Virus record (IMG/VR): IMGVR_UViG_3300011390_000002
Coordinates: 3,719 to 67,718 of that record
Direction: 5' to 3' (one strand)
Source of the DNA: a virus
Length of the DNA: 64,000 bases
Under the pieces are notes generated by a model. That model searched no databases. It saw only the letters and a list, made by a program, of their open reading frames with translations, and was not told the DNA's origin. Positions 3,521-27,055 of this stretch are shown here, piece by piece; the stretch's first letter is position 1; each line of letters opens with the position of its first letter. A program made the translations under genes and the position numbers.

Positions 3521-3913
3521 CTAGCGCTTTAGCCAGTAGCCCACCAATGAGCCGAGCGCACCGTAGGCCCAATCTTTTTGGCCTTGGTCAGAGTCTGCTT
3601 TGACCACAACCACGTAAAGCGCGGCGATCAGGATCACCACCGTGAGTAAGCCTTGCATCATCGGTCTCAGATCAATGCCGGGCTTCCTACTCAGGGTGTT
3701 CAACCGGACGTATTGGTCGATCCGGTCCTCCTCTTCAAGCTCATTAAATATGAATGTCTCAGCCTCAGGATCATCAGGCTTGACATCTTCCAACGCTTTA
3801 CCCTTTTCTTGGAACCTCCTGTCCTTTTCTTGGATCGAGAAATACCAGCCAGAGAGAAATAAAACCGCCACTCCGACAATCGACACCACGAGACTAACCG
3901 CTGTCCAGTCCAT
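3521..3913 (-). CDS. membrane protein (N- and C-terminal TM segments)
   Basis: hydrophobic ends; C-terminus similar to 7276-7533. Confidence 0.65.
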   Translation of the reverse strand: MDWTAVSLVVSIVGVAVLFLSGWYFSIQEKDRRFQEKGKALEDVKPDDPEAETFIFNELEEEDRIDQYVRLNTLSRKPGIDLRPMMQGLLTVVILIAALYVVVVKADSDQGQKDWAYGALGSLVGYWLKR

Positions 3914-8837: not shown

Positions 8838-9026
8838 ATGAAGACCATTCACCGCGCCTTTGAACCGTCCACCCAAGCTGCTGCACCGGAGAAGGAGCAG
8901 TTCAAGGCGATGCGCCCGTATCAGTTGATCGAGTGGCTCGAGGAAGAGCAGGAAGAGGCCGAGATCCGTCACCTGCGCCGTCAGATCCGCTCCAACGGGC
9001 GCGTGGGCATGATGGAGATGTATTGA
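8838..9026 (+). CDS. hypothetical protein
   Basis: GAAGAG RBS; follows palindrome at 8794. Confidence 0.6.
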   Translation: MKTIHRAFEPSTQAAAPEKEQFKAMRPYQLIEWLEEEQEEAEIRHLRRQIRSNGRVGMMEMY

Positions 9027-9044
9027 GGGTTGCGGGTGGGACCA

Positions 9045-9319
9045 GGGTGTCGGAGAACGGGAGAGCCCGCCGACACCCCAGTGGGATTGACGCACGCAGC
9101 CTTGGCCAGAAGCCTAGGGCATTGCCCTCGGCAGAGCACCACGGAGGGCAGGGCAGTGGCCAAGGGGCTCGCCTAGGCGTCACCCAAGGACGACGGCTAC
9201 GGGCGAGCGCCTTGGGGTCCAAAACGGGAGCTGCCGCCGACACACTTAGGGAGTTTTGAGCACCACCCTCGGGAATCGACCTAGGCCGATCGCCTACTGA
9301 TCCGCTCGCCGCCCTAGGG
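9045..9319. repeat. non-coding element B: 8x CCWWGG, 2x AACGGGAG..GCCGACAC, hairpin
   Basis: CCWWGG at 9100, 9113, 9160, 9172, 9184, 9210, 9280, 9313; stem GGGTGTCGG/CCGACACCC at 9045-9078. Confidence 0.65.
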
Positions 9320-9435
9320 TGCTCGGAGATGAGGATCATCCTCAGCCTGCCTCGCGTCTAACGCTCCCCGTCGCGCCCGTCAAGCGGACCCGCGCCGATA
9401 CAACAAAAACACATGCAAAAAAAGAAAACGAAAAA

Positions 9436-9479
9436 ACGTGCAAAACGCGCTTGCACGTCTGAAAAAGACTCTTCATAAT
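9436..9479 (+). promoter_or_regulatory. sigma70 promoter with A-tract UP element and overlapping ACGTGCAA-N7-TTGCACGT operator
   Basis: TTGCAC 9451-9456, 17 bp, CATAAT 9474-9479; A-tracts upstream. Confidence 0.75.
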
Positions 9480-9555
9480 TCGTCTTACTCGCTGCAACGT
9501 TGCAACGAGACATACAGTCAAAACTGACTAACACACACTTAAAGAGAAAACGAAA

Positions 9556-10314
9556 ATGAACGCACAAGCTAACGCAACGAACGCAGTTAAGGCAACGAAG
9601 CGCGCAGCACGTAACAAGAAAGCAAGCGCGCCGGTTGACGGTCTGTCGCAAGTCGAAACGCAAGTCGTTGAAACGCTCGCAGTAGAGTCCACCGTCGAAG
9701 CTGCGACGGTCGCAAACGTCACGAGCGCAGAGAAAGCAGAAGCAGCGCAAAGCATGCTGCTTGCTGCGATTCAAACGCGCATCGATAACGCACCGTCTGA
9801 CAACTTCAAAAAGAACATGCTTGCCGAGAAAAACGCGCTCTCCGGTCGTAACGCGCTGATCGCACTTGAAAAGTGCATCGAGTTAGAAGTGGACTTTGTT
9901 GCGCTCGCCAAGAGCTTCGCAGTGGTCGACAACAAAGCGCACGACTATGTGGCAATCTACGCGGCACAGAAAGTCCGTAAAGCTGTGTTTGCTCTCGCGT
10001 GCGGTATGTCGTCCGTGTTTGACGGTTACACGCAAGCGATTCTCAAGAATCTCATTAAGCTTGAATCGCTCTCGAATCGCGGTTCGCAAATGTCGCTCTC
10101 TAACAAAGTCGTCTTTAGCGAAGATATGCAAACGCAAGCGGTGCGCAGCTTCAAAATGTGCGAGCCGTCTACCGCCAGCACGCAAGCGTCAAGCACGCGT
10201 CAAATGTTGCGTTTCTTGAATGTGTGCAATGTCGTGAAGTCGCGCAAAGATGACTCAATTACGCTCACCGACTCGAACGCAGCGAAAAAAGTCGTTTCGA
10301 TGTTTACTGCGTAA
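9556..10314 (+). CDS. putative early protein encoded by CC/GG-depleted DNA
   Basis: 252-aa ORF, AAAGAG RBS, strong promoter; Ala/Lys-rich N-terminus. Confidence 0.8.
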   Translation: MNAQANATNAVKATKRAARNKKASAPVDGLSQVETQVVETLAVESTVEAATVANVTSAEKAEAAQSMLLAAIQTRIDNAPSDNFKKNMLAEKNALSGRNALIALEKCIELEVDFVALAKSFAVVDNKAHDYVAIYAAQKVRKAVFALACGMSSVFDGYTQAILKNLIKLESLSNRGSQMSLSNKVVFSEDMQTQAVRSFKMCEPSTASTQASSTRQMLRFLNVCNVVKSRKDDSITLTDSNAAKKVVSMFTA

Positions 10315-10491
10315 CAGTCAGAATTGACGGTTAGAACGTTCTCTAACCGTCTCGCAGAGCTCAGACACACATTGCACGTCTGACGCTCACAAACCGCTCA
10401 CACACTCTCTAAACGGTTCTCAACATGTTCATTCTCGTTACGCGCACGTTTCACGGTCAGGGCTTCACGTTTCAGCGCACGGTTTATGCAT

Positions 10492-10536
10492 ACGTGCAAA
10501 AAGACATTGCACGTATTTTGTAAGGCGTGCTAGAGT
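10492..10536 (+). promoter_or_regulatory. sigma70 promoter with ACGTGCAA-N7-TTGCACGT operator
   Basis: TTGCAC 10507-10512, 18 bp, TGc-TAGAGT 10531-10536. Confidence 0.6.
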
Positions 10537-10577
10537 CTTAATAACAGTCACAATTGACTATCTCAGGAGGGTGCGCA

Positions 10578-10751
10578 ATGTCTTTCGGTCTGTTCTGTCT
10601 TCTCGCGATCCTCTCTACTGCGTTGGGTGTTGCTGTCGTCGCGTGCATTGTGGAGCGTAACAGCGCGCAGCAGCAGCGCAGGGATCGAGCACGACGCGCT
10701 GCACTCGGACGCGCGCAACGTCGGGCGATTTTCAGCGCATACGGTCGCTAG
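10578..10751 (+). CDS. membrane-anchored peptide with Arg-rich tail
   Basis: AGGAGG RBS; hydrophobic N-terminus. Confidence 0.65.
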   Translation: MSFGLFCLLAILSTALGVAVVACIVERNSAQQQRRDRARRAALGRAQRRAIFSAYGR

Positions 10752-10859
10752 GGGCGGGATCGCGAAAGTCGAAGTCCTAGACTTTTTGCGGTTCTCGATG
10801 GCCCTCCCTTCCTCGTCTTCCACCCCCAAACACCGTCCCTTATAGAGCCAGGCCGCCAG

Positions 10860-11234
10860 GTCCGCGCTTCCTTATACAGCCGCAGCCCCGCAGCACATTC
10901 ACGAAATGTCCCCGTCAGGTCGCCATGTTAAATTTGGGGTCTTACCCACGAGGCATATATGCTGGCTCGTCTGAACGCTTATTCCAAAGGCACCTCACGC
11001 GATGGGATGCAGACATGGCACTTCGATATCGACGTTCGCGATTCGGGCACGCCTCTGTTTGTTGAGACGATCTCGCTCGAGGCAGTCACCCTGATTGCCG
11101 ACGCAAACAAGCAGGGTCCGCTCTACCAACTCTGTCGAGCAATCCGCGACGCGGAAGAAGGGCGCTATGAGGCGCTTGTGGGGACCGAGTTCGGCGTCGA
11201 GTAGCGTCGAGTCCGCGCTTCCTTATACAGCCGC
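10860..11234 (+). repeat. 24-bp direct repeats flanking a single small ORF
   Basis: GTCCGCGCTTCCTTATACAGCCGC at 10860-10883 and 11211-11234. Confidence 0.8.
10959..11204 (+). CDS. hypothetical protein
   Basis: GAGG RBS, 81 aa. Confidence 0.65.
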   Translation: MLARLNAYSKGTSRDGMQTWHFDIDVRDSGTPLFVETISLEAVTLIADANKQGPLYQLCRAIRDAEEGRYEALVGTEFGVE

Positions 11235-11274
11235 GCTTCCTATACTTGGTTGTGATCCGACCTGGAGCGCTGAC

Positions 11275-12024
11275 ATGGCTGAGCCGCAAAACGACGAACG
11301 CAAGGCTGTAGAACCGACGTCGGCAGTTCCAAAGACACGCCGCTTCGCTTGGCTCACTTTTCATTTCTTCGTGGACGTCACGACGCTGCTCGCGTCGATC
11401 GCCACCGTGATCGCACTCATTTTCCTTATTCACGATCGCCGCGATCAAGCCAATATTGCCGCGTGGACCCTGTTGCAGACCTATCTGCAACAGGAGCATC
11501 GAGCGCAATTTAATCAAGGGCAGAGCTTCGCCCTCGAGACATTAGCGAGTCATGGAATAGATCTCCACGATATTGATGCGCATGGCATTGTGCTTGCTGA
11601 CACCAATTTGCGCGCAGTAGACGCTGAGGAAGCATCGTTCGAGCATGCGCAATTGGTGGGGGTCGACTTGTGGAGCGCAGCGCTAAATGGTTCCAATTTT
11701 AAAAAAAGCGATATGTATTCCTGTAATTGCCGTTACGCCTCATTTTCGAATGCAAATTTGACGGGCGCTTCATTCAGAGGAGGCGATTATCGGGATGCCG
11801 ATTTTGGATTTGCCGATGTATCAGATATGACATTGGCGGCAAACCAGGTGGACCAAGACGCATTCAGAAACTCATGCAACCGACCGGGACATCCGCCTCA
11901 CGCCTTTTCGAGCGTTCCTATTGACTCTCCAAAGCATCCTCAAAGCGACGCGTGTCTCAAGGTTTGGAGTAAATCGTGGGACGCATTGGCGAAGGCGCCG
12001 GACGCAAATGCGGGTGGGGAGTAA
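11275..12024 (+). CDS. membrane-anchored pentapeptide-repeat protein
   Basis: TM helix followed by A(D/N)L/ASF-type pentapeptide repeats. Confidence 0.75.
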   Translation: MAEPQNDERKAVEPTSAVPKTRRFAWLTFHFFVDVTTLLASIATVIALIFLIHDRRDQANIAAWTLLQTYLQQEHRAQFNQGQSFALETLASHGIDLHDIDAHGIVLADTNLRAVDAEEASFEHAQLVGVDLWSAALNGSNFKKSDMYSCNCRYASFSNANLTGASFRGGDYRDADFGFADVSDMTLAANQVDQDAFRNSCNRPGHPPHAFSSVPIDSPKHPQSDACLKVWSKSWDALAKAPDANAGGE

Positions 12025-12105
12025 CGGGGCAACCTTACGCAAGCCAACACTCAATGCTTACATTTGTCTATAATCTCGTCGAAATTTTTCGAGGGAGACC
12101 AGACA

Positions 12106-12558
12106 ATGATCAAGACAACTATCGCCGTCGCGCTCGCGGCGCTCGCACTGACAGGCTGCATGACCGCTCAGCAGGAAGCTGAGAACCGCGCGTCGTATGA
12201 GAGGCTCGAGAGCGTGCTCATGAAGGCCCAGGAGAACTCAACGGTCGATTGCACGGGTGCCGACGTGTGCGAAAAGATGTGGACGCTCACCAAGAACTAC
12301 GTGCAGCAGAATAGCGGCATGGCCGTGCGGATCTCCGACGACTCCCTCATCGACACCTTCGCCCCGGTGCAATATGGGATGGCGACCTTTCGCGCGACCC
12401 GGGAGCCGGCCGGCGAGAAGATGATCGTTCGCCTAGAGGGGAGGTGTCGAGGCATGTATAACCGCGACGGCACCGAGGGGCCGAATTACGCGGACTGCGC
12501 CCGCGCGATTGGGGTGCCGCAGAACAAATTCCTGCGATATCTTCACGATCACATGTAA
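12106..12558 (+). CDS. lipoprotein
   Basis: MIKTTIAVALAALALTGC lipobox; GGGAG RBS. Confidence 0.8.
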   Translation: MIKTTIAVALAALALTGCMTAQQEAENRASYERLESVLMKAQENSTVDCTGADVCEKMWTLTKNYVQQNSGMAVRISDDSLIDTFAPVQYGMATFRATREPAGEKMIVRLEGRCRGMYNRDGTEGPNYADCARAIGVPQNKFLRYLHDHM

Positions 12559-12559
12559 T

Positions 12560-12583
12560 AAAAAAGGCACCCGAGGGTGCCTT
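12560..12583. terminator. bidirectional intrinsic terminator
   Basis: AAGGCACC-cgag-GGTGCCTT between convergent genes. Confidence 0.75.
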
Positions 12584-12605
12584 AGTTGTTTCTGGTGGCT
12601 GTAGA

Positions 12606-12902
12606 TCACTTGAGGCTTTCGAGATACGCCTTCTGCTCAGGCGTGAGTGTGGCGAGCTTTTCAATGAGCGCGCTCTTGGTGGTGCGGGTGCTGGTCTTGG
12701 CCTCCCGGCGTGCGTTCAGGTCCGGCGTAAGCGCCTTCAGGTCGGCCTTGTCGATCAGCACTTCAAGCACCTGGCCCTGGCTGATTTTGAACTGCTTGGC
12801 GATCGTGCTCAGACGTGCTTGGGCAGCCTTGTCGAGAATCACGGTGTAGCGTTTGGTGGTCTCTGAACCTGTATGGGGTTGTGCTTGTGTCATGTCTCTC
12901 AT
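12606..12902 (-). CDS. ribbon-helix-helix (CopG/Arc-like) regulator
   Basis: RYTVILDKAAQARLSTIAKQFKISQGQVLEVLI beta-alpha-alpha pattern; palindrome at 12914-12936 upstream. Confidence 0.65.
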   Translation of the reverse strand: MRDMTQAQPHTGSETTKRYTVILDKAAQARLSTIAKQFKISQGQVLEVLIDKADLKALTPDLNARREAKTSTRTTKSALIEKLATLTPEQKAYLESLK

Positions 12903-13190
12903 GGAATCGGTTAACGTGTAAAAGTGTTTTGCACGTAAATTATAGTTAGGTGCTTGCTTATTACACGAAGAAAATGCCCGCGGTGCGCATTCTAAGAGGT
13001 CTGTTCAAACGCCGCTTCGACGCCATCCCGGGCAAACCGAAAAGGCAAGCGTTAGGCAATGGCGCTGTCGTCTGCACGACGTTGCAGCCATCGGCTTGCA
13101 ATGATATACAGTCGGGCGGAATACGCCGAATTTCGAGGTTGTCGGCGTGATTTCGAGGGTCAAAAAATCTACTAAAACGGGAAAAGCAGT

Positions 13191-15287
13191 ATGGCGAGCG
13201 CGACTGTCGAACAATTTGCTAGCGAACTAAAAATGACGCCGCAAGGCCTTTTGGATCGTCTGCATTTGGCAGGTGTGGTTAAAACATCCGCGAAAGAGCC
13301 CATTTTGGACGCCGACAAGCAGAAGTTGCTCGAATATTTCAGAAAAGAGCACATACCGGACGATCGCGAAAAAATTATACTCACAAGGCAGACACCGAAC
13401 GGCCGCGCTAGATCAACGAAAGTTGAAATACGCAAGAAAAGAGTTTTTGTGAGGACTGCCGAACTGATTGGGTCGATAGAGCAAAGAACGAAAGGTATCG
13501 ATGTAGCGGTAACGGACGTGGCGATAGCGAGTCTTAGTCCCGACGCCGGATTGACTTCAGGAAAAAAGATACGCTGGAGTAAGCTTGATTCAGTCGAAAT
13601 TTCGAACTTTAAGGCAATCGACCGACTGACTGTGCCTCTCGCTGAGGTTACCATTCTAGTAGGGCCAAATGGCTCAGGCAAATCGTCCGTCCTGCAAGCA
13701 ATCCACTGGGCTGCGCGGGCAGCTAGCTATATCCCCCCTGGAGTCCAAACTGAAGTCGTATCCTTCGAGCGACTGGACTACTCGCCGTCGAGTGAACCAC
13801 TGAAAACAGCGCACAAGAAGGAGCTTTCATCGGATCGAAATTCTGATCCGACAACTGTGATTTTTAATCATTTTTTTACAAGCGACGGATCTCCGTCCGT
13901 TGCAACCATAAAGATCTGGGCGGCACGAGTCTCCGCAGGCATATCGGTAAACATCGAAGGCGGTGCTGCTGTCACCCCCTTCAAACAACGAGAAGAACTA
14001 ATTACCGCCTACATACCAGGGCTGGCAGGACTGTCGGAGCAGGAGACACTTCTTGTCCAACCGTTGCTTCGTCGACAAGCGGCTGGTGGCAACGCGGGTG
14101 GAGTTCTGCGAAACATCTTGTTTAATATCGCTAGTCGCCAACCAGGCGAAGCAAATAATGACCCAGCGATCCAGCGGGTCAGGCGCTTGAACGAACTCGT
14201 TCAGATTATTCATCCCGGGGTATCGCTCGAGGTTAGCTTCAACGATCGAGAAGACATCAATATCCAGGCAGCGTTCGACGACAATTTGCTCTCCGGTGTC
14301 AAGCGGCCTTTGGAGACAGCAGCGACCGGCGTTCTGCAGGTTGTGCAAATATTTGCTTATTTGATTTTGTTTCGGCCCAAGTTGCTACTTGTTGACGAGC
14401 CTGACGCACACTTGCATCCCGACAAACAGGAACGTTTGATAGAAGCACTTGAAAAAGCCGCTAACGAGTTTGAAGTCCAGGTAATACTGACGACTCACAG
14501 CCCACACATAGTTAGGGCCGCCTCGCCTACTGCTAACCTCTTATGGGTCAAGCAAGGTCAGGTGTTTCAGCAACAGGACGACAATATTCGCGCGCTCTTA
14601 GGGTGGGGCGGTCTCGACAAGAAAATTCTCTTTTTTGTTGAAGATGAAAATGATCACGCGATCAGAGCAATATTGCGCCAGTGGCCCCATTTACACCGAC
14701 AGTTGGGGATTTCCCGATGCTTTGGCGTAGACAATCTTCCCGGAAATGCCTTTCTAAAAGGTCTTTTGTCCGGCGATTCGTTTGACGTGAAGGTCGTCAT
14801 TCACCGCGACCGGGATTTTATGACGTCGAAAGAGTGCAAAATGTGGGCTCAGCGCTATACCGAAGACGGTGTTGCTGTATGGATCACTGAACGTTCGGAT
14901 GCTGAAGCCTATTTTTGCGAGTCGGAATACTTGAGCTGCTTATACAACGTATCTACTGATATTGCTGGTGAATGGATACGCGAAGCCGCGCTCAAATGCA
15001 GGGAGGCAAAAAAAGTTTTTTTCGACAAACGTAAAGTGTTTATTCGCTTGCTCTACGAACACGGCGGCTCACCCGCGTCGAATGAACTTTGGACGGAAAG
15101 CCTTGAAAATCCCGCCGAAATTGTCCTCGGGAAAACGCTTCACAAAGCGCTAAAATGTGAGGTTAAGGCCGCTGGCCATGACGATAAGCTTCTGGACCGA
15201 TTTGCGATTCCGAAAGGGTATGAAGTTGCATCCGATCTCCGGAAGATTCTCGAAGGCCTCCTCGCTGACGGAAATGACACAAAGTAA
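13191..15287 (+). CDS. IF2 N-terminal domain fused to ABC/AAA_21 ATPase and TOPRIM nuclease (OLD/PARIS-like)
   Basis: residues 1-90 IF2-N-like; GPNGSGKS, LLLVDEPDAHLHP, TTHSP; C-terminal FVED..IHRDRD..DAEAYF; AT-richer DNA. Confidence 0.85.
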   Translation: MASATVEQFASELKMTPQGLLDRLHLAGVVKTSAKEPILDADKQKLLEYFRKEHIPDDREKIILTRQTPNGRARSTKVEIRKKRVFVRTAELIGSIEQRTKGIDVAVTDVAIASLSPDAGLTSGKKIRWSKLDSVEISNFKAIDRLTVPLAEVTILVGPNGSGKSSVLQAIHWAARAASYIPPGVQTEVVSFERLDYSPSSEPLKTAHKKELSSDRNSDPTTVIFNHFFTSDGSPSVATIKIWAARVSAGISVNIEGGAAVTPFKQREELITAYIPGLAGLSEQETLLVQPLLRRQAAGGNAGGVLRNILFNIASRQPGEANNDPAIQRVRRLNELVQIIHPGVSLEVSFNDREDINIQAAFDDNLLSGVKRPLETAATGVLQVVQIFAYLILFRPKLLLVDEPDAHLHPDKQERLIEALEKAANEFEVQVILTTHSPHIVRAASPTANLLWVKQGQVFQQQDDNIRALLGWGGLDKKILFFVEDENDHAIRAILRQWPHLHRQLGISRCFGVDNLPGNAFLKGLLSGDSFDVKVVIHRDRDFMTSKECKMWAQRYTEDGVAVWITERSDAEAYFCESEYLSCLYNVSTDIAGEWIREAALKCREAKKVFFDKRKVFIRLLYEHGGSPASNELWTESLENPAEIVLGKTLHKALKCEVKAAGHDDKLLDRFAIPKGYEVASDLRKILEGLLADGNDTK

Positions 15288-15351
15288 GCACGGCGTCACC
15301 ACAGCCAGTCACCACAGCCAGTGCTATAAGCAGTGGTTAAAAAAATGGCTT

Positions 15352-16908
15352 TCACGCCACCTTGCGCGTCGCCAACCCCAGGCCCACGAAGTCGAAGTCT
15401 TTGCCCGCGGCCAGGATGTTTTCGGCGAACCCGGGCGTGCCCTCAATGATGGACCGGCGCGCCTGAGCATGCTCTTTCGTGTGCGAATTCCACGGATCAT
15501 CGAAGTCCACGACGAGCGCGCAGTTCGGACCTTTCTTTTTCGCCCGCAGACCACGCCCCACACGCTGGCGAAGCGCAACTTCCGCTTTCCCGCCACCGGC
15601 AAGCACCACCACACCGACGGCCGGCACATCCACACCGACGTCCAGAATCGTGGTGCCGATCAACACCTGCGTCTCTCCACTTCCCAGCCGCTTGAGCGCG
15701 GCTTTTCGCTCCTTCGGCTTGTTCTCGCCCTGCAGGAACTCGACCGTGACGCCGCGTTCAGCGAGTTGCTCCCGTAAAAGCTCACCGTGCCGCGTCTGCT
15801 GCACGAGAATCATGACGGGGAGCCCCAGCGCCACCCCGCGGCGCGTCTCGAACACAATTTTCGCGTTGCGCTCAACGTTGTCGACGATGCCGATGCGGTA
15901 GGCAGCCTGCCAGGTCGTGCCCCGGAACAGTTTGGCCGGCTTGTGCTCGAGCGCCACGTATTTGAAGTGGGGTTTCGCGAGGATGCCGCGGTCGATCAGC
16001 ATCTTCTCGCTGATCTTGATCCCGATCGGGCCGAACGCCGCCATGAGACGCATGTTCGACTCTTCATCGTCCTTCATGAAGGGCGTGGCAGTCAGTGCCA
16101 GGCGGTAATGCGCGTTCTTGCAGTGCTTGAGGATGTCGTAGTAGCTGTTGCCCGATGCCTCATGCGCTTCCTCGCCGATCACGAGCTCGAATTTCTCCAA
16201 GAGCGCGATCGTTTTGTTGCGAATGCGCGTTTGCTCGTTTTGCTTCTCAACGTCATCGTCTGGACACGGTTCTTGCAAGCGCGCAACGAGCGTCTGAACC
16301 ATGCCAACGCTCATCATCTTCACCGAGTGACGTTCTTGACCGTCGGCACCGACTGTGACCGTCCCAAACTGCCCGTCGCCAAGCACCGAGCACTGCACGC
16401 CCATCTCTTCGAACGCATCCTTCATCTGATACATGAGGATCGAGCGGGTTGTGAGAAACAGGGTGGGGCGCCGGATACGGGCGAAGGCCATGCGAGCGAT
16501 GCGTGACTTGCCGCCACCGGTTGCGACCTGGGCAATGATCTGGCGATGCTTGACCAGCCGACTGACCACCTCCGGCTGATAGTCGTAGCGCGGATCGTCT
16601 GGGAAGCTGTCGATTTTCGGGTTCTCCGGACCCAGCGGCAGCGGGGCGGCCTTGGCCGCATAGCGCACGTTGTGCCCGGCGCGCCGCAGGTGGCCAGCCA
16701 CGTATTGCACGAAGCCGGCGGGGAAGGTGCCTTTCCTGAAGTCGAAGAAGGAGCTGCGCCCGTCCCAGCCTCCGGTCTTGAACGCCATCACGTTCTCGGC
16801 GCCCGACACCTTGTAGGACACGATGCGCTGAATATCCAATTTCAACGCGCGGTCTGTTTCAACGAGCTTCGCAACGGTCGCGTTATAAGCAATGGTGACG
16901 TTAGACAT
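15352..16908 (-). CDS. superfamily 2 (DEAD/DEAH) helicase
   Basis: ATGGGKS, EEAH, LTATP, QRVGRGLR; start MSNV at 16908. Confidence 0.9.
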   Translation of the reverse strand: MSNVTIAYNATVAKLVETDRALKLDIQRIVSYKVSGAENVMAFKTGGWDGRSSFFDFRKGTFPAGFVQYVAGHLRRAGHNVRYAAKAAPLPLGPENPKIDSFPDDPRYDYQPEVVSRLVKHRQIIAQVATGGGKSRIARMAFARIRRPTLFLTTRSILMYQMKDAFEEMGVQCSVLGDGQFGTVTVGADGQERHSVKMMSVGMVQTLVARLQEPCPDDDVEKQNEQTRIRNKTIALLEKFELVIGEEAHEASGNSYYDILKHCKNAHYRLALTATPFMKDDEESNMRLMAAFGPIGIKISEKMLIDRGILAKPHFKYVALEHKPAKLFRGTTWQAAYRIGIVDNVERNAKIVFETRRGVALGLPVMILVQQTRHGELLREQLAERGVTVEFLQGENKPKERKAALKRLGSGETQVLIGTTILDVGVDVPAVGVVVLAGGGKAEVALRQRVGRGLRAKKKGPNCALVVDFDDPWNSHTKEHAQARRSIIEGTPGFAENILAAGKDFDFVGLGLATRKVA

Positions 16909-17548
16909 TGCCGATCTCCTCGAAGTGTTGTTGAAGTCGTTTGCGAAGCGCGCTCTCGTTCCAGCCAAACTCTTTCGCGATCACCCTCAAGCCAGCGAGC
17001 CGCTTGGGGTTCGCGAAGCGCTTGGCAATCTCTGCGACCCCCTCCCTTGTCATGCGCGGCGCAGCAACCTCGAAGAGCTTTTCGACCGGGTATCCCTTCG
17101 CGAACCGCCCGTAGACGGTCGGGAAAGGCAGATTGAATTCTTGAGCCCACGCGGAAAGAGTTTGGCTGCGTCCTTCGAGTTCAATGACGATATTGTTCCG
17201 GCGATTGTTCGCTTGCTGCTTTGCCGTCGCCCAGCGGCAGTTGTCAGGTTTATAGCCTTCATTGACGCGCTCCCGGTCGAGCGTCATGCCTTCCGGCGCC
17301 TCGCCCATGTCGGCGAGGAAGTTCTCGAAACTCATCCATCGCTCACAAATCCCGATGCCGCGGCCGCCGTAGTCGGCGAAGCCGGCATGCTTACTGTTTA
17401 AGCACCGGCCCTTCATGTTCACCCACGCCCGATAAGTCTTATTGTCGCCCGCCATCCCATGCACAAACTTGTGGTGCCGAGAGCTTTCTTCCGTAGTCGC
17501 CATTTCTGATTTGCCATCCAGGTTTAGTTGGCGTAAAGTATAAGTCAA
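16901..17548 (-). CDS. HNH-type homing endonuclease-like protein
   Basis: YRAWVNMKGRC..YGGRGI..W..FENFLADMG..TLDRE..N..Y..DNCRWAT..QANNRR. Confidence 0.85.
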   Translation of the reverse strand: MTYTLRQLNLDGKSEMATTEESSRHHKFVHGMAGDNKTYRAWVNMKGRCLNSKHAGFADYGGRGIGICERWMSFENFLADMGEAPEGMTLDRERVNEGYKPDNCRWATAKQQANNRRNNIVIELEGRSQTLSAWAQEFNLPFPTVYGRFAKGYPVEKLFEVAAPRMTREGVAEIAKRFANPKRLAGLRVIAKEFGWNESALRKRLQQHFEEIGNV

Positions 17549-17581
17549 TACTGACTGTTACTCCTACGCCAAAGAACACAT

Positions 17582-18235
17582 ATGGGTAAGCCCCAAATCA
17601 AGTCGATCGAAGTAGACCCCCGGTCGCTCAAGCCCAACGTTTGGAATACCAACGTGGTCGCGCCTGACGACGAGGCCAAGATCGATGCGAGCCTCGCGCG
17701 GCTGGGCATGTTCAAGCCCATCATCGTGCGTGAGCTTGCCGACGGCACTCTCGAGATCCTCGGTGGCGCACACCGCCGTGATTCAGCGATCCGACTTGGT
17801 CACGACACCGTGCCGGTCATGAACCTCGGGCGCATTGACGATCAGCGCGCCAAAGAGATCGGTCTTGTCGACAACGCTCGCTACGGCAACGACGACACGA
17901 TTCGCCTCGCAGAGCTGCTCGACGGCATGGGCAGCCCCGATGACCTCGCAGCCTTCCTGCCCTATACCGACGCTGACTTCGCTTCAATCTTCTCTTCAGT
18001 GAATATAGCGTTGGATGATTTAGATATACCGGACGATGACGCGGCCCCAAGCCCGTTACCCAAGGAAGCCGCGGTTCAAACCCATCAGATCATGCGGTTC
18101 AAGGTGCCTGTCGAAGACGTCGGCGCCGTCACGGACCTCATCGAAGCCACCATGAAGGCCCAGCGGTTCACCGAGGATGACTCGTTGAGCAACGCCGGCG
18201 CCGCTCTCGTTCACCTGCTCACATCCGGCAAATGA
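17582..18235 (+). CDS. ParB/Srx N-terminal domain protein
   Basis: LKPNVWNTN..KPIIVR..ILGGAHR. Confidence 0.85.
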   Translation: MGKPQIKSIEVDPRSLKPNVWNTNVVAPDDEAKIDASLARLGMFKPIIVRELADGTLEILGGAHRRDSAIRLGHDTVPVMNLGRIDDQRAKEIGLVDNARYGNDDTIRLAELLDGMGSPDDLAAFLPYTDADFASIFSSVNIALDDLDIPDDDAAPSPLPKEAAVQTHQIMRFKVPVEDVGAVTDLIEATMKAQRFTEDDSLSNAGAALVHLLTSGK

Positions 18236-18429
18236 AATTTTCCTTCTGTCGCACCTGCGTGAATCTCGAATACGACCCGCTCCAGTGCCGGACCTGTGAC
18301 GAGGGTTCCAACTATGAAAACAACGGCGAGGAAGACGAATACGACGCGGACCTGCAAAAGCTGCAGGCGCTCGATAAGTCCGACGAAGAAGACCAACCCA
18401 CGATCTGGCTGGAGCTCGAAGCCGCATGA
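18232..18429 (+). CDS. small Zn-finger acidic protein
   Basis: CRTC..CRTC; overlaps both neighbours by 4 nt. Confidence 0.6.
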   Translation: MKFSFCRTCVNLEYDPLQCRTCDEGSNYENNGEEDEYDADLQKLQALDKSDEEDQPTIWLELEAA

Positions 18430-19070
18430 ACGAATTCAAACCCACCCTCAAGCCAGTTGACTGGCTCAAGCCTTACGAGCTGAACGCCAAGACTCATGAC
18501 GACGCGCAAGTGAAGAAGATTGCCGCGTCCATCGAGCAGTTCGGCTGGAACACCGCCATCGTCGTGGAAGCCGATGGCACGATCATCGCGGGTCACGGCC
18601 GGCGGCTGGCGGCCATTTCCCTGGGTCAGACCCACGTTCCGGTCGTGGTTCGCGATGACCTGTCGAAAGAAGAGGCGCGGGCGCTGCGCCTGGCGGATAA
18701 CCGGGTTGCGCTCTCCGAGATCGACGCACGCGTTCTGCAGGAAGAACTCGCCTCGCTCGACTTTGACCTCGCAGGCATTTTCGATGCCAAAGAACTCGAC
18801 TTCATGACGGCGGACCTGAGCGATGTGAACGAGACACCGTTCGTCGAAGACTTGGACGCTGAGGTGCGCGAACAGGCGGCAGAGACGACCAAGAAGCTCG
18901 AGGCGACCGATGCGCGCGATGTGAAGCTCGATAAGGCGCTGGGCTTCAAGGCAATCACCGGCCGCGACGAAAAGCACGTGGCGCGCTTCATGGCGCTGAT
19001 CGAAGAACAGACTGGGTTGACGGGTGCCGACGCCTTTGTCGCGCATGCGAAAGCCGTGGTTTCCGCTTAA
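18426..19070 (+). CDS. ParB/Srx N-terminal domain protein
   Basis: LKPYELNAKTH..SIEQFGW..IIAGHGRRLAA..LRLADNR. Confidence 0.88.
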   Translation: MNEFKPTLKPVDWLKPYELNAKTHDDAQVKKIAASIEQFGWNTAIVVEADGTIIAGHGRRLAAISLGQTHVPVVVRDDLSKEEARALRLADNRVALSEIDARVLQEELASLDFDLAGIFDAKELDFMTADLSDVNETPFVEDLDAEVREQAAETTKKLEATDARDVKLDKALGFKAITGRDEKHVARFMALIEEQTGLTGADAFVAHAKAVVSA

Positions 19071-19088
19071 CCCTCGCATTAGTCAATA

Positions 19089-19598
19089 TTGAATATGCAA
19101 AATGATAACGATCCTGTGCGTGATGGCACTGCTGTCATTGGTAGCGATTGGGTGCTGGCTTCTGAGCCGGGACAAGCTTCAGCTCGAGCCGGCAGAGGTG
19201 CTGGCCGTGCTGATGCTGCTGGCGCTCCTCGACGAGTCCGAACGGTCGTGAAGCAGTTCGACCCGTATGTGGGCATGCCCCGCGCGATTCGGATCGGCAA
19301 CTTCAACTTCCTGGTGAAGCTTGTGAGCGTGGGCGAGTCCCAGGCGACAAACCGGCACGGCCTCATGTGCCCGGTGCAGCAGATCATCGCGATTTCGCCT
19401 GGCCAAAACGCGCAGAACCTCGCCGACACGTTCATTCACGAAGTAATCCACGCCATTCATTACCACTTCGACCTTCTGGACGACAACAACCAGGAGGAGC
19501 AGATCACCACGATGACCGCGCACGGGCTCTGCCAGGTGTGGCAGGACAACCCCAAGGCAATGGCGTGGTGGGCCGCTATCAACGCGCACGGCATCTGA
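19089..19598 (+). CDS. zincin-like metallopeptidase
   Basis: FIHEVIHAIH (HExxH). Confidence 0.65.
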   Translation: MNMQNDNDPVRDGTAVIGSDWVLASEPGQASARAGRGAGRADAAGAPRRVRTVVKQFDPYVGMPRAIRIGNFNFLVKLVSVGESQATNRHGLMCPVQQIIAISPGQNAQNLADTFIHEVIHAIHYHFDLLDDNNQEEQITTMTAHGLCQVWQDNPKAMAWWAAINAHGI

Positions 19599-19599
19599 C

Positions 19600-20262
19600 A
19601 TGACCACTTACACCATCAACCAACGCTTCACCGCCTCGGTTGAACGCACTGACCGGGTGCTGGAGGTCGCGGAAGCCTTCGGCCTGGGTCTGGACGACAA
19701 GGAATTCGTCGTTTTCGACAACCAGCCAATCGACATTCACCCGGGCGACGTCTGCTACGTGACGGGCCAGTCCGGCTCGGGCAAATCGACGGTCCTGCGC
19801 GAGCTCAAAAAGCTCATGGTCGAGGAGGGGCTCTCGGTCTGCGACATCGACGCGATCGAGTTCCAGGACAAGCCGCTCATCAACCAGATCGGCACCGATA
19901 CGAACGACGCGCTGCGCCTGCTCGCGATTGCGGGCATCTCGGACGCCTACCTGTATATCCGCAAGCCCACGGAGCTCTCGGACGGCCAGCGCTACCGGTT
20001 TCGGCTTGCCAAGCTCATCGAGTCCCGCGCCCAAGTCTGGGTAGCGGACGAATTCATGGCTGTCGTCGATCGCGACACCGCCAAGAACATCGCTTTCAAC
20101 ATGCAGAAGGTCGCTCGCACCGCCGGCGCCACGCTGCTCGTTGCCACCACCCATACGGATTTGCGTCAGGACTTAGCCCCAACTCTCTATATTGAAAAAC
20201 GGTATAGGGAAAAAATCGAAATCTGTTATTCGCCCGAGGGCTACCGGGATTCGGGGTGCTAA
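19600..20262 (+). CDS. stand-alone ABC-family ATPase
   Basis: GQSGSGKST, LSDGQRYR, WVADEF, TTH. Confidence 0.9.
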   Translation: MTTYTINQRFTASVERTDRVLEVAEAFGLGLDDKEFVVFDNQPIDIHPGDVCYVTGQSGSGKSTVLRELKKLMVEEGLSVCDIDAIEFQDKPLINQIGTDTNDALRLLAIAGISDAYLYIRKPTELSDGQRYRFRLAKLIESRAQVWVADEFMAVVDRDTAKNIAFNMQKVARTAGATLLVATTHTDLRQDLAPTLYIEKRYREKIEICYSPEGYRDSGC

Positions 20263-20264
20263 GC

Positions 20265-20876
20265 ATGAGTAAGAAGATTGGAATCTATCGCATCACCAAC
20301 ACGGTTGACGGCAAGTTCTACGTCGGCAGTTCGGTGGACATGGACAAGCGGTTTTATCTGCACAAGAACCAGCTTGGGCACGGCAAGCATCGCAACAGCC
20401 GACTGCAACGAGCCTGGTTGAAGCATGGCGCCGACGCATTCCAATTCGAAATAGTGGAGCTGGTCTCGAGCCGTGACGAATTGCTCGCGACTGAGCAACG
20501 CTGGCTCGACGAAACGAGGGCGGTAGAGCTTGGATACAACATCTGCTCGACAGCCCATCACCGGCTCGGCGTGAAAGCAACAGCGGAAACATTGGCTCGA
20601 ATGGCCGCCGCTCAACTGGGTAAGCGACACACCGAGGAGACGCGTGCGCGCATGTCGGCGGCAAAGACCGGGCAACCGAAGCCGCCTCGCACAGCAGAAC
20701 ATCGCGCAAAGATCGGCCTATCCCGGAAGGGCAAGGCCGCTTCGGAAGAAACGCGAGCGAAGTTGAGGGCTGCCCGTGCAAGACGCGCCCCCATGAGCCA
20801 AGAAACCCGAGAAAAGATGTCCGCCTCCATTCGAGCAGCACTGGCGGCAAAGAAAGCCCTATCACTGAATACCTGA
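20265..20876 (+). mobile_element. GIY-YIG homing endonuclease with NUMOD3-like repeats
   Basis: GIYRITN..KFYVGSS; repeated H/EETRARMS motifs. Confidence 0.9.
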
Positions 20877-20887
20877 AGGATACAAAG

Positions 20888-21238
20888 ATGCCGGTCATTA
20901 ACCCCACGAAACACACGTTCGACTTCGCCGTGCGGGAGAAGTCGAAGGAAGAAGCGGTCGTTGTCGCATTCACGGCGCCCTGGTGCGGTCCCTGCCGCGC
21001 ACTCAAGCCCAAGCTTGCGGCGCTTGCGGACGAGTGGGGTTTCACGCTCGCCGTGGTCGATGCGTCGGTTGAGCCGGAGCTGGCCGCGCTCTTTGGTGTG
21101 CGCGCTGTGCCGACAGTCCTCACGATCGAAAACGAGCTGGTGCGCGGGCGTTTCACGGGCGGGCGCACGGATGAAGCGATGCGCGAGTATTTCGCCTCGT
21201 TTGGCCTGAACGAAACCCAGATCAAGCTGGAGTTCTGA
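20888..21238 (+). CDS. thioredoxin
   Basis: FTAPWCGPC..FGVRAVPT. Confidence 0.9.
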   Translation: MPVINPTKHTFDFAVREKSKEEAVVVAFTAPWCGPCRALKPKLAALADEWGFTLAVVDASVEPELAALFGVRAVPTVLTIENELVRGRFTGGRTDEAMREYFASFGLNETQIKLEF

Positions 21239-25423: not shown

Positions 25424-27055
25424 ATGCCAACGACGCTCAACACCAAGCATTTCACCACCGGCGAATCCGGCGTTCTCGATCCGAAAGAGGTCGATAGCGC
25501 GAGCGCCATGGGACTCACGCCGCCAGACGACGAGCAGAAGAAGCTGCGCGCGTTGATCAGCCGTCGGCATCCGGAATACGAAGAGAACATCAACCACTGG
25601 CAATTCCTCGAGTCGACCTACGAGGGCGGGCGCGAGTGGTTTGCGACCAACATCTTTCGCTACATCAAGGAAGGCGACAAGGAATTCAACGACCGCCAGG
25701 CGCGCGCCTACCGCTTTAACCACACGAAGGAAGTCGTCGATCTGTTGAACAAGTATCTGTTCAAGCAGGCGATCACCCGCAACGTGGACGACGCGCCGGA
25801 CTGCGTGAAGCAGTTCTGGCAGAAGGCCACGCGCAACGGTCTGGGCATTCAAGACCTGGCGCGTCAGATCGCCTCGCGCACCTCCCGCAGCGGTCGTATC
25901 GCCATCGTGATCGACAACCCGGCGGGCGCCACACCTCAGACGAAAGCCGATGAAAAGAAGCTGGGCGTGCAGACCTACGCCTACATCGTCGGCCCCGACC
26001 AGTTGCTCGACTACAGCTATGACGACGCGGGCGCCTTGAATTGGGCACTGCTGCAGGAAGCGGCGCGCGATGACGCGAACCCGCTCGACTCCAGTGGCCA
26101 GATCACGCAGCGCTTTCGGCTCTGGACCAAGACCGAGTGGCGTCTGTTCGAGCTGCAGGGCAAGGGCAAGAAGCAAAAGGTCGTGCAGATCGGGCAGGGT
26201 GCGCACAACCTCGGTGAAGTGCCGGTGATTCTCGCTGACCACGTGATTACCGACGAGCTTTACGTGGCGCCGTCGATGATTGACGACATCGCGTATCTGG
26301 ACCGGGCGGTGGCCAACTACCTCTCGAACCTCGACGCGATCATCCAGGACCAGACATTCAGCCAGCTCGCCATGCCAGCGCAGAACATGCTGCCAGGCGA
26401 GGACAGCTACACGAAGATGACCGAGATGGGCACCAAGCGTGTCTTCCTCTATGACGGGGAGGGCGGCGCCGCCCCGCAATACATCTCACCGGACCCCAAG
26501 CAGGCCCAAATGATTCTCGCGGCGATCCACAAGATCATCAACGAGATTTATCACACGTGCGGACTCGCGGGCGAGCGGACCAAACAGGACAACTCGCTCG
26601 GGATCGACAACAGCAGCGGTGTCGCCAAGGCATATGACTTCGAGCGAGTGAACGCTCTGTTGGCTGCCAAGGCGGACTCGCTGGAGGTGATCGAGAACAA
26701 GATCGCTCGGCTTGTCGCGCTCTGGAACGGCGCAGAAGACGAAGTGAAAGGACTGCTCGTCACCTACCCCGATGACTTTGACACGCGTGGCCTCTACGAC
26801 GAGTTCGACATTGCCGCCCGACTGATGCTCATCGACGCGCCGGTTGCACTGCGTCAGGAGCAAATGAAGGCGCTGATCGAAAAGCTCTTCCCGCAGATGG
26901 CTAAGGCGACCAAGGAACAGATCATCAAGGATCTGAAGGACTGGCCGCCGGTGGACCCGTTGCTCGACCCGAGCAACACCGCCGCGCAGCAAACCCAGAA
27001 GCTCTCCGACCGGGCCGTGGCTCAGGAATCACTCGCGACCAAATCGGAAGGCTGA
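25424..27055 (+). CDS. portal protein
   Basis: 543 aa directly after terL; YEGG..RY..E and SGVAKAYDF motifs. Confidence 0.85.
   Translation: MPTTLNTKHFTTGESGVLDPKEVDSASAMGLTPPDDEQKKLRALISRRHPEYEENINHWQFLESTYEGGREWFATNIFRYIKEGDKEFNDRQARAYRFNHTKEVVDLLNKYLFKQAITRNVDDAPDCVKQFWQKATRNGLGIQDLARQIASRTSRSGRIAIVIDNPAGATPQTKADEKKLGVQTYAYIVGPDQLLDYSYDDAGALNWALLQEAARDDANPLDSSGQITQRFRLWTKTEWRLFELQGKGKKQKVVQIGQGAHNLGEVPVILADHVITDELYVAPSMIDDIAYLDRAVANYLSNLDAIIQDQTFSQLAMPAQNMLPGEDSYTKMTEMGTKRVFLYDGEGGAAPQYISPDPKQAQMILAAIHKIINEIYHTCGLAGERTKQDNSLGIDNSSGVAKAYDFERVNALLAAKADSLEVIENKIARLVALWNGAEDEVKGLLVTYPDDFDTRGLYDEFDIAARLMLIDAPVALRQEQMKALIEKLFPQMAKATKEQIIKDLKDWPPVDPLLDPSNTAAQQTQKLSDRAVAQESLATKSEG

Follow-up and report, generated by a model that had tools for sequence, protein, structure and literature searches.

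An OLD-type nuclease on a phage-plasmid carries a host-derived IF2 Domain I module that may serve as its sensing arm

The stretch of DNA analysed here, referred to below as the window, comprises 64,000 nucleotides (positions 3,719 to 67,718 of the IMG/VR virus record IMGVR_UViG_3300011390_000002) and contains at 13191-15287(+) a gene with a single open reading frame (ORF) of 698 amino acids, P0001. We found that its product joins a module derived from Domain I of translation initiation factor IF2, by way of a flexible linker, to an ABC-type ATPase and a C-terminal domain resembling the Toprim nucleases AriB and OLD. Among the relatives of this protein the module tracks the IF2 of the respective host. 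We tentatively propose that it docks the nuclease on the transcription factor NusA and couples its activation to phage interference there.

An earlier note, made from the window sequence alone, had taken residues 1-90 for an IF2 N-terminus, and profile, sequence and structure searches bear this out. The Pfam profile IF2_N covers residues 1-52 over its entire length, with scores of 24.6 bits for the N-terminus alone and 25.8 bits when all six frames were searched (cut-off 25.3), and IF2_assoc matches residues 70-88 weakly with the end of its profile (17 bits); many members of the family exceed the cut-offs of both profiles in precomputed matches. When residues 1-125 were searched by phmmer against 1.84 billion representative sequences, 584 matches were obtained, and ten of the top ones were scanned with Pfam: eight have an N-terminus of IF2 type (IF2_N at 1-51, IF2_assoc at 60-98), which in four cases is accompanied by a second IF2_N and/or the GTPase domain, and the other two are further fusions. 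The scanned matches are 45-53% identical to residues 1-90 (E about 1e-12), a similarity to IF2 that, by the measure of these sequence comparisons, is far above chance expectation. All PDB matches at E<=0.01 are likewise IF2 (P. aeruginosa 7uiu, E 3.5e-5; E. coli 3jcj, E 0.003). AlphaFold2 (AF2) models residues 1-54, the N1 sub-domain, as a three-helix domain with a predicted local distance difference test (pLDDT) score of 81-90, followed by strands at 62-67, 73-81 and 84-88 that are predicted at low confidence, in a segment that aligns to IF2 residues 60-96. Beyond them the model shows a disordered linker up to about residue 125, whose conserved end (VTD..I..LSP...K.IRWSKL) leads into the ATPase whether or not a member has the IF2 module.

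The 698-residue protein is not an IF2, and it contains none of the GTPase (GTP_EFTU), EF-G_D2 and IF-2 C-terminal domains that true IF2 matches possess. It shares with bacterial IF2 Domain I 45-56% identity over about 90 residues, the order of the sub-domains and the predicted helical N1, and differs from bacterial IF2 as a fusion that lacks the IF2 linker, the second IF2_N, the GTPase and the C-terminal domains. NCBI labels relatives of this protein 'IF-2 N-terminal domain-containing protein', and the B. aenigmatica homolog (P0005, L002:8001-10097) is mislabelled 'translation initiation factor IF-2'; the database start of the latter (MPSETM...) lies 14 residues too late, the open frame beginning MASHTVEQFAAELK. 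A mis-called start or a chimeric assembly was considered as the origin of the fusion and rejected, because 77 independent relatives, complete genomes included, keep the module in frame and under purifying selection. This retention also speaks against translation starting downstream of the IF2 part, the outcome that the earlier note had set against its own reading.

The window protein has more than 1000 relatives, found mainly in beta- and gamma-proteobacterial chromosomes and plasmids, megaplasmids included, and the closest 118 were analysed for their N-terminal module. An IF2-derived module is present in 77 (53 of betaproteobacterial type and 24 of Pseudomonas type) and absent from 41, and some members have only part of it, either the strand segment alone or N1 alone. 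These modules follow the lineage of the host. The lineage-specific stretch RRHTSE..Q....GKARTIQVEVRKKRTFV is common to Burkholderia fusions and Burkholderia IF2, and the stretch PRKI.LQRKTTSTLRVAGSK.I.VEV is in the same way common to Pseudomonas-type fusions and Pseudomonas IF2. In an Ideonella metagenome-assembled genome (MAG; G003), N1 of the fusion has 89% protein identity and 85% DNA identity to N1 of the host's own IF2, the codon differences from infB comprising 17 synonymous and 6 non-synonymous changes. The host IF2 (L089, G003:C1:1495268...) has N1 and is missing the IF2_assoc strand segment. Since the Ideonella fusion (L084) joins the host-type N1 to a Burkholderia-type strand segment that the Ideonella IF2 lacks, it is a mosaic for which recombination is the sole explanation.

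Phylogenetic analysis provided further support for such exchange. A tree was built from 52 fusion modules together with 29 IF2 N-termini; it places the fusions of gamma type with Pseudomonas IF2 (support 96) and puts that of Ideonella within an IF2 clade (support 99). The well-supported branches require at least three changes between fusion and IF2 labels, and the hypothesis that all fusion modules form one clade is rejected by the approximately unbiased (AU) test (p=0.006). The IF2 module has thus undergone capture or conversion on at least three occasions. In a tree built from the nuclease core, the members of gamma type fall into a single clade (support 100); thus a single nuclease lineage entering Pseudomonas bears a module of Pseudomonas type. 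Purifying selection acts on the module, with a ratio of non-synonymous to synonymous substitution rates (dN/dS) of 0.31 in a close pair, as against 0.07 for the core. The suggestion that the N-terminus mimics a host factor, made before any relatives had been compared, is strengthened by this tracking of the hosts' IF2.

The IF2-nuclease fusion is rare among the sampled genomes. Two matches to residues 1-95 were obtained in just 3 of 401 Burkholderiales genomes, and the fusion was confirmed in one of them alone (G001), the second match in G395 being a different protein of 277 residues and both matches in G337 lying inside infB; this tally takes in one unpublished genome, G299, which has a single match and on which no claim rests. 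The nuclease family occurs in 6 of 151 Pseudomonas genomes, one of the six having the IF2 module. A tblastn search with the window protein against 50,697 GenBank phage records found no homolog. The design had been described as an unusual host-factor mimic carried by a phage. Its carriage by a phage stands, the gene being on an IMG/VR virus record. The design is not peculiar to this phage, as it belongs to a family that is mainly chromosomal and plasmid-borne.

The gene had also been called stand-alone, which agrees with the lack of any conserved neighbour gene among four loci (the window, L002, L005 and L012). The settings of the homologs vary, and include a PARIS pair with an integrase, a position downstream of rpoD that includes Fic, NERD and PAAR genes, and the vicinity of another AAA_15 gene. 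In Pseudomonas danubii (L090:1225-4792) a phage-type integrase is located about 1.2 kb, and a canonical PARIS-like pair (an AAA_15/AAA_21 ATPase with a DUF4435 protein) about 2.4 kb, away from the homolog.

The N-terminal slot of the nuclease is itself variable. Domain Ia of the NAD-dependent DNA ligase LigA fills it in P0272, P0273, P0274 and P0288; all 26 PDB matches are LigA, and the Pfam profile Nlig-Ia scores 27.3 bits in P0288. In P0094, a single metagenomic sequence to be treated with caution, domain Ia is accompanied by the entire LigA adenylation domain. Other members have short or unidentified N-terminal extensions. Those of Rhodobacteraceae (L014:7704-8030 and L015:7692-8030) share a distinct, conserved extension of about 110 residues (W.VD...L..W.LE..SGNDGE.YG.LVRF.EG.D) that has neither a Pfam match nor a second copy in the host genome, and therefore some of the N-extensions are not copies of host genes. 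Conversely, the survey of other effectors joined to IF2_N that the earlier note had proposed turned up four: P0158, in which the IF2 module sits on a different defence-type ABC ATPase; P0121, a protein of 1217 residues with two IF2 modules, a zinc ribbon and a TPR-like tail; P0143, a coiled-coil protein whose C-terminus bears a membrane helix; and L111:877-1707(-), a protein of 277 residues whose gene adjoins an AlpA-like gene. A sensor-like module shared by several effectors, and an effector paired with several modules, is typical of conflict systems.

The ATPase predicted in the initial description is confirmed, with the Walker A, DEPD and H-loop named there. Its Pfam matches are AAA_15 (E 8e-30), AAA_21 (E 2e-27) and also SMC_N, the PADLOC models NsnB, AriA, Old, GajA and PtuA match it, and Foldseek aligns it with the OLD protein of retron Eco8, PtuA, GajA, TsOLD and SMC/Rad50 heads. 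In an alignment of 30 homologs, G158-P159-N160 and G163-K164-S165 of Walker A are invariant, with G161 and S162 present in at least 90%; D402, E403, P404 and D405 of Walker B are invariant; and so are T435-H436-S437 of the H-loop, where T434 and P438 again reach at least 90%.

The C-terminal domain required structure-based comparison. Residues 445-698 gave no Pfam or PADLOC match at E values up to 10, profiles for TOPRIM and DUF4435, which had been suggested for this purpose, thus failing to pick up the domain, and a profile search with its alignment gave no PDB match. Modelled alone by AF2, the domain reaches a pLDDT of 84. Its best fold match by VIA is AriB (8v46_D, Z 7.4 over 185 residues), with further matches to B. 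pseudomallei OLD (6nk8, Z 6.5), the Toprim protein 2i5r, T7 primase and TsOLD, the Z scores ranging from 5.2 to 7.4. Foldseek retrieved the C-terminus of X. campestris OLD and AriB with a probability of 0.8-0.9, and matches in the AlphaFold database (AFDB) are the C-termini of entries named DUF4435, GajA/Old nuclease and 'ATP-dependent endonuclease'. These scores are of intermediate size but agree with one another, and the motifs point in the same direction. E484, D485 and E486 in motif 1, H538, R539, D540 and D542 in motif 2, and D570 and E572 in motif 3 are invariant, and, as is the case in Toprim, the invariant acidic residues come after strands 1, 3 and 4. In order and spacing they resemble the VED, DxD and ENY that are invariant in a DUF4435 alignment: motifs 1 and 2 are 56 residues apart, compared with 52 in DUF4435, and motif 3 parallels the invariant E110-N-Y at a similar spacing. 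In hhalign comparisons the C-domain profile aligned with a profile of 28 DUF4435 sequences at 4% probability over 14 columns, confined to the VED motif and not significant, and with a single DUF4435 protein again by the VED motif alone and without significance. We read the domain as a putative divergent Toprim of AriB/OLD kind, in line with the TOPRIM-like assignment and the VED, DxD and ExY motifs first noticed in the translation, a reading that draws on the predicted fold and the motifs in place of a sequence-profile match.

Taken as a whole, the window protein is predicted to have the architecture of a class 1 OLD protein with an AriB-like Toprim. With class 1 OLD (P2 Old, TsOLD 6p74, V. 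cholerae class 1 OLD and YbjD) it shares a PADLOC Old match at E 2.5e-25, a Foldseek alignment to 6p74 that spans the full length, and the single-gene organisation that defines the class, there being no helicase or retron partner. It differs from this class in an additional arm of 125 residues, made up of IF2 Domain I and the linker, and in a putative Toprim too divergent for Toprim, OLD or DUF4435 profiles. In comparison with PARIS (AriA and AriB; 8v46, 8ux9), the ATPase corresponds to AriA (PADLOC E 1.4e-31 and 1.9e-27) and the C-terminal domain has AriB as its best fold match, with the same order of motifs as DUF4435 and similar spacing. PARIS, however, is made of two genes with no host-protein module whereas the window protein is one polypeptide, and the PADLOC model of fused AriAB matches only the ATPase part. 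Agreement with DUF4435 (PF14491) is limited to fold and motif order, and because the sequence test for this family failed, we did not file the protein as PARIS. It shares an ABC ATPase and Toprim fold also with the systems of 9lpa_B, 8sm3_A and 8u7i_A found by Foldseek, but the window gene has no same-strand helicase, retron reverse transcriptase (RT) or non-coding RNA.

We then considered the gene in its setting (Table 1). A GGGAA stretch upstream of the ATG provides a weak Shine-Dalgarno-like signal. The G+C content (GC) of the gene is about 0.50, as against 0.58-0.63 in the flanks, with a range of 0.47-0.55 for the gene, about 0.56-0.64 downstream and a mixed 0.47-0.62 upstream, which agrees with its description as richer in AT than its surroundings. 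The virus record that carries it is 73.9 kb long, with an estimated completeness of 69%, and encodes a phage-plasmid-type portal protein and ParB. The portal, at window 25424-27055(+), shows 51-54% identity to its counterparts in Rhizobium phages and in SSU5-like phage-plasmids from Salmonella, Escherichia and Klebsiella; a megablast search of window 9000-21000 against GenBank phages gave no nucleotide-level relative. Because its GC differs from the flanks and phage-plasmid genes (portal, helicase, HNH and ParB) lie around it, the nuclease gene looks like foreign cargo on a phage-plasmid. The helicase, HNH and ParB genes, which are not kept beside homologs of the nuclease, probably serve the phage-plasmid's own replication and partition. 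A Gabija-like pairing of the nuclease with the adjoining helicase was rejected, since the helicase is convergent, UvsW-like and the phage's own, and since no partner gene is shared at the four loci. About 1.2 kb upstream, on the same strand (window 11095-12024(+)), lies a gene for a pentapeptide-repeat protein of 309 residues (Pfam Pentapeptide, E 1.6e-19); proteins of this type are able to mimic DNA.

Table 1 Features of the nuclease gene and its neighbours (residues of the 698-residue protein; positions in the window).
Feature	Residues	Window position	Strand	Basis or setting
Whole gene: IF2 Domain I module, linker, ABC ATPase, Toprim-like domain		13191..15287	+	698-residue ORF
N1 sub-domain, IF2_N homolog	1-54	13191..13352	+	Pfam, phmmer, PDB, AF2
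IF2_assoc-like strand segment (...KIILTR...STKVEIRKKRVFV)	60-90	13368..13460	+	Pfam, IF2 alignment
Flexible linker	91-128	13461..13574	+	pLDDT below 50-60
ABC-type ATPase, OLD/AriA/PtuA kind	129-445	13575..14525	+	Pfam, PADLOC, Foldseek
Walker A GPNGSGKS	158-165	13662..13685	+	Motif and homolog conservation
Walker B LLLVDEPD	398-405	14382..14405	+	Motif and homolog conservation
H-loop TTHSP	434-438	14490..14504	+	Motif and homolog conservation
Putative divergent Toprim (AriB/OLD-like) domain, helical C-terminal part	470-693	14598..15269	+	Predicted fold and motifs
Toprim motif 1 FFVEDEND (after strand 479-483)	E484, D485, E486	14631..14654	+	Invariant residues
Toprim motif 2 HRDRDF (DxD; after strand 534-539)	D540, D542	14802..14819	+	Invariant residues
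Toprim motif 3 SDAEAYF (after strand 561-565)	D570, E572	14895..14915	+	Invariant residues
UvsW-like superfamily 2 (SF2) helicase		15352-16968	-	Convergent with nuclease gene
HNH endonuclease		16901-17548	-	Overlaps UvsW-like helicase gene
ParB		17582-18235	+	Beyond HNH gene

A possible function of the module is suggested by recent work on IF2 itself. [quoted passage not shown] NusA-AR1 is in addition the binding site of lambda N in E. coli (PMC7171158). The captured piece, N1 1-54 with strands 60-90, coincides with this NusA-contacting part. Long-form NusA with C-terminal HHH_5/AR repeats is encoded in a Burkholderia host of the fusion (G002) and in a Pseudomonas genome (G004) whose family member is without the IF2 module. 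We favour docking on, or guarding of, NusA because the captured piece is the NusA-binding Domain I of IF2 and AR1 also binds lambda N. By this analogy the module may hold the nuclease on NusA, with activation tied to phage interference there, a reading that we put forward as quite possible, though short of probable.

On the molecular level, the window protein would be a single-protein, class-1-like ATP-dependent nuclease of the OLD family in which the ABC ATPase gates an AriB/OLD-type Toprim. As AT-rich cargo of an SSU5-like phage-plasmid of a betaproteobacterium, it would most likely provide abortive-infection or exclusion immunity against competing phages. The IF2 module on its flexible linker would act as the targeting and sensing arm, docking the nuclease on host NusA at the transcribing RNA polymerase and coupling its activation to events there. 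As candidate trigger, N-type antiterminators on NusA AR1, or other remodelling of NusA, might displace the module, upon which ATP-driven activation of the Toprim would lead to cleavage of tRNA or DNA, as by PARIS and P2 Old, and halt the infection. Cleavage of tRNA or DNA by OLD, AriB and P2 Old is described in PMC10568477, PMC12409363, PMC12445682 and PMC12392090, that of tRNA by AriB and P2 Old in PMC12409363 and PMC12445682. In this scheme we infer NusA binding by the module, the trigger, the substrate and the function in defence.

Several observations weigh against the NusA reading. The contact between IF2 Domain I and NusA has been demonstrated in E. coli only, and strands 60-90 of the window protein are modelled at low confidence. 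The members with LigA domain Ia, which has no link to NusA, are better accommodated by a general bait model. Sequence change is 2-4 times faster in the module than in the core, and this would suit a bait in an arms race as well. The window module is 48-56% identical to the nearest sampled IF2 and is, at this distance, a diverged rather than a recent copy. As to the nuclease, the Toprim assignment comes from fold and motifs with Z below 8 and no sequence-profile match, and the class 1 OLD protein YbjD works without need for its Toprim (PMC13261556). Finally, no family member has a known defence phenotype, a point that also counts for a role outside defence.

NusA would be uninvolved if the module were an integrated decoy, that is, a bait that a phage protein directed at IF2 Domain I, by binding or modification, would also hit, thereby switching on the ATPase-nuclease. 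Host matching and repeated re-copying from infB are to be expected of such a bait, and they fit it as well as they fit docking on NusA. The more rapid evolution of the module relative to the core, the occurrence in the same slot of a second host-protein N-terminus in the form of LigA domain Ia (in P0094 with the whole adenylation domain), and the joining of the IF2 module to unrelated effectors, the usual pattern of sensor domains, all agree with a decoy. PARIS and P2 Old are moreover triggered by phage proteins that attack host functions (PMC12409363, PMC12445682). Against this, our literature searches gave no phage factor aimed at IF2 Domain I or LigA domain Ia, and Domain I is dispensable for growth of E. 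coli (PMC12297416) and hence an odd target for a phage. The long disordered linker, too, would relay a binding signal poorly to the ATPase, although activation by oligomerisation could still operate. On balance we regard a decoy of this kind as possible yet rather unlikely.

The earlier note had offered, next to a decoy, a tether in which the module places the nuclease on 30S or 70S initiation complexes or on initiator tRNA for the cutting of tRNA or rRNA. A structure paper of 2003 reportedly compared the N1 fold of IF2 with the stem-contact domains of tRNA synthetases. Both AriB and P2 Old cut tRNA (PMC12409363, PMC12445682). The premise that the IF2 N-terminus contacts the ribosome nevertheless has a weak basis, for the captured Domain I is absent from the natural short IF2 and its partner in E. 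coli cells is NusA (PMC12297416). Because IF2 has no need of Domain I for its ribosomal function, and because binding to conserved rRNA or tRNA would require neither a host-matched sequence nor repeated re-capture, we consider a tether, which the LigA domain Ia variants do not fit either, the least likely option and highly improbable. The nuclease might instead serve the element itself, in addiction, maintenance, recombination or repair, or the IF2 piece might be a passenger of recombination with infB. Class 1 OLD genes are frequently found outside defence islands (PMC10568477), the window gene is located among replication and partition genes (for the UvsW-like helicase, HNH and ParB), and many members have no IF2 module. 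Such a role fits the selection and context data poorly, however: the module is retained in 77 of the 118 relatives with a dN/dS of 0.31, 17 synonymous against 6 non-synonymous differences from infB and a confident fold, its ends coincide with domain boundaries, homologs are found in variable islands by PARIS, Fic, NERD and integrase genes, and every close relative of the core, by structure or by profile, is a defence nuclease. We therefore judge a function outside defence improbable.

In plant nucleotide-binding leucine-rich repeat (NLR) receptors, integrated decoys are copies of a host domain that are built into an immune protein as its sensor. The present proteins could be likened to them in having a host-domain copy as the possible sensing part, but belong to unrelated families and another kingdom, and in the bacterial case recombination with the host gene renews the copy. 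In our incomplete literature collection we found no paper on a fusion of IF2 Domain I to a defence nuclease or on a defence system aimed at NusA, and the sensing principle would be new if confirmed. As a possible yet rather unlikely reading, we hypothesise that OLD-type nucleases borne by phages and plasmids carry N-terminal domains copied from essential proteins of the host, namely IF2 Domain I and LigA domain Ia, as baits or guards that are refreshed by recombination with the host gene, and that the IF2 version watches the site where NusA and IF2 couple transcription to translation.

If this is true, these nucleases would amount to a bacterial equivalent of integrated-decoy immunity and to the first immune sensor directed at NusA, the IF2 version firing once a phage antiterminator or takeover factor occupies the NusA-IF2 coupling site. 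The recently found contact between IF2 and NusA would gain a second biological role, and host-matched Domain I modules on a lethal reporter would constitute a natural reagent for its study. The large size of the family, the one-gene design and the clear catalytic motifs make the question tractable, and the parallel LigA domain Ia variants suggest that the principle may reach beyond IF2. Should sensing at the NusA-IF2 site be true, a renewable copy of a host domain would represent a new route by which bacterial and phage immunity detects infection.

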